The notes beneath the pieces are model-generated. The model did no database searches, had not been told where the DNA came from, and saw only the letters and a program-made list of their open reading frames with translations. Source: an uncultured bacterium (GTDB lineage Bacteria > Omnitrophota > Omnitrophia > Omnitrophales > Aquincolibacteriaceae). Taken from it: DNA of 64,000 nt. Position numbers and translations under genes: made by a program. Shown here piece after piece: positions 21,404 to 22,648 of the stretch (position 1 is the stretch's first letter; each line of letters opens with the position of its first letter). The stretch covers positions 21,565-85,564 of the forward strand of contig CAYLPP010000010.1 in NCBI GenBank assembly GCA_964385615.1. The letters are read 5' to 3'.

Positions 21404-22648
21404 CTATTTTGAGTTCGCGTAACGGATTAACTCGGTCATGGGCCGTTTGGACGGACACACGTAGGAGCAATTTCCGCATTCCACGCAATATTCTGAACCA
21501 TACTGCCGCGCCAGATTAACTCTGTCATTTTCGGCAGCAAGACTGATCATAGCCGGAGAAATTCCGGCCGGACAAACATCCAGACATCGCCCGCATCGAA
21601 TACAAGGTTCCGGGACTTCCGGCCTGGAGGCCTCAATCGGCAGAGCCAGAATCCCCTGGGTTCCAGGCACAACAACAGCATCCAGACTCTTTTGAGTCTT
21701 TCCGCTCATGGGACCGCCCATGATTAATTTTCGGGGTTCACGCATAAAACCTTTACAAGTTTTAACGACGCTTGAAAAATCCTGCCCCATCCGGGCCCAG
21801 ACATTTTTAGGCTCCATCACGCATTCCCCGGAAACAGTCACAACCCGCTCAAGAAAAGGCTTATGGAAAACCGCGGCTTCATACACCGCGAAAACCGCGG
21901 ATGGATCAAAAATACAGGCGGAATCCAACCCGGCCCGGCGAGAAAGAATATTTTCAGTGTCCGGGTAACCGCATGGAATCATCCGCACATCAGCGTGTTC
22001 CCATTTCAAAAAATAGATTTTACTTTTCAAAAGTTCCGCGGCTTCACGTTTATCCTCTTCGGTCACGATCAGAATATTTTCAGCACCGCACGCGCGCCTG
22101 AGAATTTCAGCGCCTTTCAAAATTTCCAGAGGATGCGACATGATCAAAGAGTAATTCGAGGAAAGATACGGCTCCGACTCACAAGCATTCACAACGAGCG
22201 TCTTAGCCGGGGCTTTGATTTTAAGATGCGCGGGCGTCATTTTCAGATCCGTATCCATCAGGCCCATTTCCCTGAAAAATTCCGGCCACCGGTCCGCCGG
22301 CATTTTTTCCCAGTCCTGCTCTTTTCCGAATCCCGGTATTTTTTCATCCTGGCCGTCAGAAAGAATTTCAATGGCCTGCGATCTTCCAAAAACCGGGTGC
22401 TCTATTTTAAGAATTTTCGAGACTTTTCCAGAGACGGACGCGTGAAGCGCGACATTGGAAATATGCCCCGGCTCGGCGATTTTTTGCCCCATAAGAACAG
22501 CATCCCCCGCTTTCACGCAGGGATGGGCTTCAAAACCGGTGGATTGCAGAAGGGGAACGCAAATTTTAGCGGGAGAGGAAGAAGGGCGGTGAATCGTCCA
22601 GATCAGGAAAAAAATTTCTTTTTTGTTTTCGAGCTTTAAAAGTTTCAT
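21404..22648 (-). CDS. RnfC-like subunit with two [4Fe-4S] ferredoxin motifs but no GGAGFP flavin/NADH motif
   Basis: Aligns to E. coli RsxC in the barrel-sandwich region (CVKAGDAVLMGQ), the ...LVVNACESEPY... region, VTVSGE...NVWARMG and IMGGPMSG. It has two CxxCxxCxxxCP motifs (CIRCGRCLDVCPA and CVECGNCSYVCPS). The position of [13 protein letters not shown] reads GLMDTDLKMTPAHLKIK. Confidence 0.6.
   Translation of the reverse strand: MKLLKLENKKEIFFLIWTIHRPSSSPAKICVPLLQSTGFEAHPCVKAGDAVLMGQKIAEPGHISNVALHASVSGKVSKILKIEHPVFGRSQAIEILSDGQDEKIPGFGKEQDWEKMPADRWPEFFREMGLMDTDLKMTPAHLKIKAPAKTLVVNACESEPYLSSNYSLIMSHPLEILKGAEILRRACGAENILIVTEEDKREAAELLKSKIYFLKWEHADVRMIPCGYPDTENILSRRAGLDSACIFDPSAVFAVYEAAVFHKPFLERVVTVSGECVMEPKNVWARMGQDFSSVVKTCKGFMREPRKLIMGGPMSGKTQKSLDAVVVPGTQGILALPIEASRPEVPEPCIRCGRCLDVCPAGISPAMISLAAENDRVNLARQYGSEYCVECGNCSYVCPSKRPMTELIRYANSK

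Follow-up and report, generated by a model that had tools for sequence, protein, structure and literature searches.

Can an RnfC subunit that lacks its flavin- and NADH-binding signature still serve a ferredoxin:NAD+ oxidoreductase and, if it cannot, what has become of the complex around it? The question is raised by a gene at positions 21404-22648 of a 64,000-nucleotide stretch of DNA from an uncultured bacterium of the Omnitrophota (assembly GCA_964385615.1, contig CAYLPP010000010.1, positions 21,565 to 85,564; hereafter, the window). The cofactors and electron path of Rnf and of the Na+-translocating NADH:quinone oxidoreductase (Na+-NQR) have been described (PMC9588780, 10.1101/2024.06.21.599731, PMC12174285); in the canonical, U-shaped path, electrons pass from ferredoxin to RnfB, a 2Fe-2S cluster, the flavin mononucleotide (FMN) of RnfG, the FMN of RnfD, riboflavin, the iron-sulfur (Fe-S) clusters of RnfC, the FMN of RnfC, and NAD+. 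An earlier note on this DNA had claimed that the gene encodes an RnfC-like protein that keeps both ferredoxin motifs, has lost the GGAGFP signature, and would be incapable of canonical FMN or NADH binding. We find that the loss of the signature was rightly called, and that the note missed the coding strand, which is minus, the presence of the trait throughout a clade, and the accompanying losses of RnfB and of the cofactor sites of RnfD, RnfG, RnfE, and RnfA. The gene and its neighbors very probably encode a degenerate Rnf-type complex, RnfC'-RnfD'-(RnfG')-RnfE'-RnfA', which lacks RnfB, in which, to judge from sequence, the canonical ferredoxin-to-NAD+ path cannot run, and which has been repurposed.

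Identity and predicted fold of RnfC'

The gene, rnfC', lies on the minus strand with its ATG at 22648 and encodes a 414-residue cytoplasmic subunit of RnfC fold; the plus-strand reading of the same interval yields only stops. RnfC' scores 282.7 bits against the TIGR01945 rnfC model (cutoff 245.95) and 255.9 bits against the RsxC equivalog NF003454, under the cutoff of 345. It also matches the Pfam RnfC_N, Complex1_51K, and 4Fe-4S dicluster models, with the Complex1_51K match beginning at profile position 12 and skipping the Gly-rich start of the domain. In a phmmer search, RnfC' aligns end to end with the RnfC chains of solved structures, with E-values of 1e-60 to 5e-55: 7zc6_C from C. tetanomorphum (E 1.2e-60), 9eri_C from A. 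woodii, and 8ahx_C from A. vinelandii. Modeled with AlphaFold2 from 120 sequences, RnfC' has a predicted local distance difference test score (pLDDT) of 95.6 and a predicted TM-score (pTM) of 0.93. In Foldseek, the model superimposes on 9eri_C with a TM-score of 0.94 and a root-mean-square deviation of 1.8 Å, on NqrA with a TM-score of 0.70, and on NuoF-type subunits with TM-scores of about 0.5. The gene is thus an unambiguous RnfC homologue by sequence and predicted fold, and the RnfC-like identity proposed in the earlier note is borne out.

The FMN/NADH pocket of RnfC'

RnfC' lacks the Gly-rich loop of canonical RnfC. Residues 127-145 (EMGLMDTDLKMTPAHLKIK) stand opposite the segment AGIVG[ML]GGA[TI]FP..VKL of 7zc6_C, 9eri_C, and 8ahx_C in the phmmer alignments with these solved-structure sequences, and opposite the canonical Gly loop in a BLASTP alignment with E. 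coli RsxC (from NC_000913) and in MAFFT alignments of 123, 202, and 152 sequences; four independent alignments agree on this placement. The BLASTP alignment also reproduces the earlier hand alignment to RsxC, with TLVVNACESEPY opposite TLIINAAECEPY. Specifically, RnfC' residues 129-143 (GLMDTDLKMTPAHLK; 22220-22264, minus strand) occupy the site of the canonical flavin/NADH loop G-[IV]-x-G-x-G-G-A-x-F-P-x-x-V-K, and the position of G-x-G-G-A-x-F-P reads D-T-D-L-K-M-T-P. The motif G[LM]GG[AG]xFP is present in 70 of 70 canonical RnfC sequences from control loci versus none of 11 variant loci. Within RnfC' residues 100-180, the only other glycines are those of PGFGK (residues 105-109), which faces a surface segment that is variable in canonical RnfC and which we rejected as an alternative Gly-rich motif; the loss of the signature therefore stands.

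The losses reach beyond the Gly loop into four more segments. We aligned 131 variant sequences with the 70 canonical sequences and, using C. tetanomorphum numbering, scored as lost each residue that is conserved at 85% or more in canonical RnfC and is unconserved in the variant. About 22 canonical near-invariants are lost: G134, G136, G137, A138, F140, and K145 in the Gly loop, where G134, G136, G137, and F140 are 100% conserved in canonical RnfC; C164, D171, R173, and E177 in the NxAECEPY region; N205 in the IEDNK segment; Q234, G235, E237, and K238 in the YPQGxEK segment; and R247, P250, L254, P255, G259, N264, and K344 in a downstream segment. In the NxAECEPY region, the canonical N-G-A-E-C-E-P-Y is replaced in RnfC' by NACESEPY (residues 154-161; 22166-22189, minus strand); canonical C164, which is 100% conserved, is Ser or Pro in the variants, and 95% of them carry a Cys two positions earlier (C156). 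Further FMN-site replacements in RnfC' are YPDTEN for YPQGAEK and IFDPSA for VQNVDT. None of the segments by which we recognize the FMN site (the Gly loop, NxAECEPY, Y-P-Q-G-x-E-K, and V-x-N-V-x-T) is canonical in RnfC', and the putative NAD(H)-site invariants K145, D171, R173, E177, N205, R247, and K344 are unconserved in the variant. We take the lost segments, by homology to NuoF/Nqo1, to be those that hold FMN and NADH; the flavin/NADH motifs of NuoF/Nqo1-type proteins are G-R-G-G-A-G-F-P, NADE(S/G)EPG, and YICGEE/NNVET, and the equivalent RnfC' positions are unconserved. Other features survive in the variant: the GGPM.G motif, residues N160, E163, E165, P166, and Y167, and the barrel-sandwich core. 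At the loop positions of the variant, the most common residue has a frequency of only 0.2-0.4; these positions are unconstrained, which speaks against another conserved binding loop having taken the place of the Gly loop. Together, these substitutions support the earlier claim that the subunit would have no canonical way of binding FMN or NADH.

Fe-S motifs and residues specific to the variant family

Both CxxCxxCxxxCP motifs are intact, as the earlier note had read. The first comprises residues C349-P360 (21569-21604, minus strand; C349, C352, C355, and C359) and the second comprises residues C388-P399 (21452-21487, minus strand; C388, C391, C394, and C398). Across the 131 variant sequences, C349, C355, C359, C388, C394, and C398 are invariant, and C352 and C391 are each conserved at 98%. 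The variant family has near-invariants of its own, namely C156, H172, S209, K210, W216, E275, C276, W284, and R303.

Partner subunits

The cofactor sites of the membrane subunits are degenerate as well. rnfD' (19256-20095, minus strand) encodes a 279-residue RnfD homologue; its family profile matches A. woodii RnfD (9eri_D) at an E-value of 6e-51, with an hhalign probability of 100%. In 12 of 12 variant RnfD' sequences, the covalent-FMN loop, D..[ST](G)ATPL, is deleted together with about 40 following residues that include G..GE[TI]S, and nearly all canonical RnfD invariants are gone. Residues N123 and D249 of RnfD are riboflavin ligands that were mutated by Kumar et al. (10.1101/2024.06.21.599731); in RnfD' the Asp at the D249 position never varies, and the N123 position mostly holds His. 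Riboflavin in RnfD' is the only membrane cofactor that may remain. The N-terminal PH(I)R arm of RnfD, which is buried inside RnfC in solved structures (PMC9588780), is kept in RnfD', and RnfC' therefore likely assembles with RnfD'.

The remaining three genes encode small, degenerate membrane proteins whose homology emerges only from family profiles built from related loci: scans with Pfam and NCBIfam (E ≤ 0.01) return no match for any of the three open reading frames (ORFs), and canonical-only jackhmmer and HMM searches return an E-value of 0.012 for RnfG' and no match for RnfE' or RnfA'. rnfG' (18757-19263, minus strand) encodes an RnfG-like protein of 168 residues with one N-terminal transmembrane segment, counted from an ATG at 19263 (the listed ORF starts from a TTG at 19317); hhalign relates it to canonical RnfG with a probability of 97% (E 9e-11). 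The Thr of the SGAT flavinylation motif is unconserved in RnfG', the window having SGAQ, and the gene itself is missing in several related loci. rnfE' (18218-18760, minus strand) encodes a degenerate polytopic membrane protein of 180 residues at the rnfE position; hhalign gives RnfE at E 1.7e-4 (probability 50%) and RnfA at E 0.27, and the single PDB match is NqrD at E 6. rnfA' (17733-18221, minus strand) encodes an RnfA-like protein with a probable GTG start at 18221 (the listed ORF reaches 18419), so read that the stop of rnfE' and the start of rnfA' overlap in GTGA; its family profile matches 8ahx_A at E 2e-7, and hhalign gives RnfA with 94.6% probability (E 7e-8) over the C-terminal 75 columns only. 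RnfE' and RnfA' contain no conserved Cys in the columns that hold LGlCP and vNC in canonical RnfE, the Cys being ligands of the intramembrane 2Fe-2S cluster. A functional RnfC would be encoded with functional rnfD, rnfG, rnfE, rnfA, and rnfB, the last for the polyferredoxin through which ferredoxin electrons enter; here there is no rnfB, and the cofactor sites of the partners are gone.

Operon organization and synteny

The genes are arranged on the minus strand in the order rnfC'-(dsbA x n)-rnfD'-(rnfG')-rnfE'-rnfA', with pilT next. This order recurs between mnmA and pilT or polA in related loci (L002-L006, L008-L009, L035, and L082-L086), with the dsbA-like gene and rnfG' each present in only part of them, and the order rnfC-D-G-E-A matches that of clostridial rnf and of nqrA-E. 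No RnfB-like ORF lies downstream in any variant operon, whereas canonical control loci carry rnfG, rnfE, rnfA, and usually rnfB after rnfD. Family scans likewise reveal no NqrF-like gene in the variant operon, in which rnfA' is followed by pilT. In one related locus (L007, 9356-16388), about 7 kb separate rnfC' from the rnfD-like gene, far more than in other loci.

The gene between rnfC' and rnfD' (20105-21397, minus strand) encodes a tandem-DsbA protein with two DsbA/thioredoxin domains, carrying CPYC at residue 84 and CPFC at residue 280, and one N-terminal transmembrane segment. Pfam Thioredoxin_4 and DSBA each match twice, and the best-scoring model is NF041057, "Rcas_1661 family thioredoxin-like (seleno)lipoprotein" (225 bits). 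The gaps on its rnfC' and rnfD' sides are 6 and 9 bases. Of about 16 related loci, 10 (including L002, L003, L006, L010, L035, and L084-L086) carry a DsbA-like gene with one to three domains, and every domain has its CP[FY]C or CG[FY]C motif intact; the gene is missing from L004, L005, L008, L009, and L082, or about a third to half of variant operons.

The surroundings are a conserved housekeeping block, bioB...bioA-bioD-mnmA-[rnf']-pilT-polA-coaE-rho-prfA. We do not draw a functional link to pilT or mnmA from this synteny, which reflects the block; pilT is missing in L082. A scan of the rnf' operon for promoters and terminators gave results no better than those with shuffled sequence.

Distribution of the variant

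The variant is widespread in databases, where the earlier note had proposed to look for it. The 120 best database relatives of RnfC' have 43-71% identity to it, and almost all lack the Gly loop. The 131 variant relatives found form one clade in a neighbor-joining tree, with no canonical sequence within it and the 70 canonical RnfC sequences apart. Most members are nameless; the named ones are all Candidatus Omnitrophica/Omnitrophota, save one labeled "bacterium". Every match named by its source is called RnfC, under the names "RnfABCDGE type electron transport complex subunit C" or "Na+-translocating ferredoxin:NAD+ oxidoreductase subunit C" (NCBI, JGI). On this sequence evidence, the trait is not a one-off and marks out a large clade, with Omnitrophota as its named members. 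Canonical Rnf is present in Omnitrophota too, at locus L033.

We also searched 1.84 billion representatives of 50%-identity clusters with a profile, and the best 148 were scorable. The top 30 or so representatives (631 to about 400 bits) are variants, followed by a plateau at about 350 bits that consists of canonical RnfC. G.GG is missing in 48 of the 148; in 44 of these 48 the Cys of ECEP is missing too, and in 35 all four tested motifs are missing. About 35-48 of the best 148 clusters lack the motif. ECEP is kept in 95 of the 100 representatives with the loop. By their sequences, the pocket motifs are thus lost together among these representatives.

Two further groups of sequences bear on this distribution. 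The locus of one clade member, P0066 (L082/L083, 8001-11368), holds an "intermediate" operon at the equivalent syntenic position: its RnfC' keeps GLGGEPFP and FNVAT, yet NGCESEPY and GGEC are already present; its 332-residue RnfD keeps NPFNPA and lacks the flavinylation loop; and only two small membrane ORFs follow, with polA in place of pilT. Outside the main clade, the G.GG loop is also missing from P0168 (L089), P0203 (L088), P0187, P0209, P0212, P0245, P0248, and P0253. RnfC-like proteins of the P0168/P0203 type mostly lack the ECEP Cys and keep the two Fe-S motifs. For P0168 and P0203, the two that we examined, the neighboring rnfD still encodes a canonical flavinylation motif, TSATPL in L089 and TNATPL in L088, and in L088 a canonical RnfE-like start follows RnfD; these two are less degenerate than the Omnitrophota clade. 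Lineages outside the clade may have lost the RnfC flavin site on their own.

Selection on the variant operon

All ORFs of the operon are intact in every locus examined, and neighboring frames abut or overlap. Relative to the two closest relatives, the ratio of nonsynonymous to synonymous substitution rates (dN/dS) is 0.08-0.15 for rnfC', 0.14-0.32 for the membrane genes, and 0.02-0.07 for neighboring housekeeping genes; these ratios are only rough since dS is saturated (1.2-3.4 or undefined), and dN is well under dS throughout. The membrane subunits share 39-54% identity where PilT shares 95%. The degenerate operon is under purifying selection, which points to repurposing.

Other features of the window

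The region at about 52800-55200 is likely the chromosomal origin; its dnaA (53802-55187, plus strand) is about 31 kb away from the rnf' operon. dnaA is followed on the plus strand by dnaN, gyrB, gyrA, and serS, and the minus strand carries yidC, mnmG, parA, parB, and almost all upstream genes; the cumulative GC skew has its minimum at about 52-54 kb. At 546-1259 (minus strand), an ORF resembles QrcA, the multiheme cytochrome c of menaquinone reductase (NF041781, E 3e-22; 78.9 bits, under the cutoff of 180), which hints that the organism has a redox chain that is periplasmic or linked to quinones.

The interval 26266-38947 (minus strand) contains bioB, bioF, bioA, and bioD, interleaved with fabG/fabF-like genes and with assimilatory sulfate-activation genes: cysD, a fusion of cysN and adenosine 5'-phosphosulfate (APS) kinase, a second, stand-alone APS kinase, 3'-phosphoadenosine 5'-phosphosulfate reductase, and two pyridoxal-phosphate enzymes. 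Between bioF and bioA are a gene for a GGDEF protein and an unannotated 141-residue ORF (25837-26262), a pair similar to one in L084. The interval 41163-45714 (minus strand) encodes a GH94-type phosphorylase (819 residues) and a glucoamylase-like protein (723 residues), whose ORFs overlap by about 80 bases; with the adjoining genes for a solute-binding protein and a ROK-family protein, they make up a small sugar-utilization cluster.

Discussion

The losses of the RnfC' pocket, the covalent-FMN sites, the 2Fe-2S ligands, and RnfB argue that the complex would be neither a ferredoxin:NAD+ oxidoreductase nor a redox-driven ion pump. Comparison with known systems places RnfC' nearest to RnfC/RsxC (PDB 7ZC6, 8AHX, and 9ERI), with which it shares the order of a barrel-sandwich N-terminal domain, NuoF-like alpha/beta domains, an SLBB-like domain, and a C-terminal 2x[4Fe-4S] ferredoxin domain, TM-scores of 0.92-0.94, 28-30% identity, and a neighboring rnfD homologue with the PH(I)R arm. 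It differs in lacking the Gly loop and four pocket segments, in the replacement of the NxAECEPY Cys, in its own invariants (E275-C276 and R303 among them), and in its operon, which lacks rnfB and encodes partners without cofactor sites. Because RnfC' lacks the sequence determinants of the FMN/NAD(H) site, we do not class it as a functional RnfC. NuoF/Nqo1-type modules (the complex I 51-kDa subunit, HydB, NfnB, and FdsB) share the Complex1_51K and SLBB core at Foldseek TM-scores of about 0.5. We rejected identity with PrdC, since the TIGR04481 score is 87.7 bits against a cutoff of 490 and the window contains no prd genes.

How might the repurposed complex work? We offer a guess, one more likely to be wrong than right, that some cytoplasmic partner docks at the remodeled RnfC' pocket and feeds a truncated electron wire. 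Electrons would then pass through the two 4Fe-4S clusters of RnfC' to a riboflavin site that RnfD' may retain (at its D249 equivalent) and would leave RnfD' for a membrane or periplasmic acceptor, much as riboflavin delivers electrons to quinone in Na+-NQR.

The same losses could be read in other ways. NqrA, like RnfC', is derived from RnfC, has lost the FMN/NAD(H) site, and is encoded in an operon without rnfB whose order nqrA-B-C-D-E corresponds to C-D-G-E-A; it is a precedent for an RnfC homologue kept without a catalytic role (PMC12174285, PMC4014512). RnfC' could by analogy be a redox-inert scaffold with structural Fe-S clusters, and the complex a non-redox transporter or channel or a structural membrane complex, an explanation that we lean against but take seriously. 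The loss of nearly all RnfD' invariants and of the cofactor ligands of RnfG', RnfE', and RnfA' speaks for it, as do the fast evolution of the membrane subunits relative to PilT and the failure of family scans to identify an input or output partner in the operon. However, NqrA lost both Fe-S clusters, whereas the variants keep all eight Cys (98-100%) and the flanking residues despite wide divergence; the family's own invariants E275, C276, R303, C156, and H172 suggest a constrained site; and the riboflavin-ligand Asp of RnfD' is invariant. RnfC' also scores only 34.3 bits against the NqrA model TIGR01936 (cutoff 321), and Na+-NQR differs from the variant in having kept its 2Fe-2S cluster, two covalent FMN, and riboflavin and in having gained NqrF, whereas the variant lost the membrane sites. 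The DsbA-like gene suggests a different role, in which the Fe-S clusters of RnfC' would exchange electrons via RnfD' with the periplasmic tandem-DsbA protein and thereby re-oxidize or reduce disulfide catalysts. The tight fit of that gene within the operon, its recurrence in that place, with one to three domains, in 10 loci, its intact CP[FY]C in every domain, and its single transmembrane anchor are consistent with such a thiol-disulfide system, but the gene is optional, RnfD', RnfE', and RnfA' have no conserved Cys for a thiol relay, and, with the periplasm-side flavins gone, no electron path across the membrane is evident. Low-potential 4Fe-4S clusters are, moreover, poor oxidants for DsbA, and we consider this role improbable.

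The extent of the losses (cofactor sites wholesale, rnfB, in some lineages rnfG', and a rapid divergence of the membrane subunits) could also mark a non-functional, decaying remnant of an ancestral rnf cluster. Intact ORFs and dN well below dS for every gene make such a pseudo-operon unlikely; we regard it as very improbable, given also that intact ORFs extend to more than 130 RnfC' sequences from about 35 or more 50%-identity clusters, that start/stop overlaps are kept, that many residues are invariant, and that the AlphaFold2 model is confident. That the complex is, on the contrary, a canonical ferredoxin:NAD+ oxidoreductase with an odd flavin loop and its missing subunits encoded elsewhere accords with the TIGR01945 score above cutoff, the RnfC names given by NCBI and JGI, the GLGG kept in a few clade members, and published Omnitrophota reconstructions that list Rnf as a ferredoxin:NAD+ oxidoreductase (PMC8542988, PMC10066038). 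It is nevertheless next to untenable, since five pocket segments are lost rather than one, all 12 RnfD' sequences have the covalent-FMN loop deleted, the Thr of RnfG' and the Cys ligands of RnfE' and RnfA' are unconserved, and rnfB, adjacent in canonical loci, is in no variant operon.

Several points weigh against a degenerate, repurposed complex, which we nevertheless prefer. The cofactor losses are read from sequence, and a flavin or another cofactor could possibly be bound non-canonically in the remodeled RnfC' pocket. Some clade members, slightly nearer to canonical sequences, keep a near-canonical loop (GLGGEPFP in P0066 and GLGG in P0074 and P0118), indicating that the degeneration is graded rather than absolute. 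An rnfB gene or a second, canonical rnf operon could lie elsewhere in the genome. The assignment of RnfE' is a weak one, from profile similarity and gene order. The electron wire is speculation, with riboflavin retention resting on one invariant Asp.

We found no description of a flavin-less or degenerate Rnf in Omnitrophota in the literature, and a recent review describes the cofactors of the membrane part as "strictly conserved" in RNF and NQR alike (PMC12174285). The variant would thus add a large, selected clade without the conserved membrane cofactors and would offer a natural minimal system for RnfC and RnfD without flavins. Reyes-Prieto et al. (2014; PMC4014512) postulated that NQR originated through an intermediate in which rnfB was lost, followed by loss of the RnfC NAD/FMN site; the variant matches this hypothesized stage of NqrA origin and suggests that a state with rnfB and the RnfC NAD/FMN site lost and the Fe-S clusters kept is able to persist. 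In the most far-reaching reading, which we think unlikely, the family would be a phylum-scale, cofactor-stripped Rnf descendant that constitutes a new membrane Fe-S module, retaining only the two 4Fe-4S clusters of RnfC' and perhaps riboflavin in RnfD', with a short wire that might run from a cytoplasmic partner to a membrane or periplasmic acceptor, possibly the co-encoded DsbA, and a living rnfB-loss stage on the way to Na+-NQR. For the physiology of the phylum, the consequence is more immediate: in reconstructions of Omnitrophota metabolism, Rnf balances the pools of ferredoxin and NAD and generates an ion gradient (PMC8542988, PMC10066038), and where the Rnf credited to a genome turns out to be the variant, its Rnf energy-conservation step would be unsupported.

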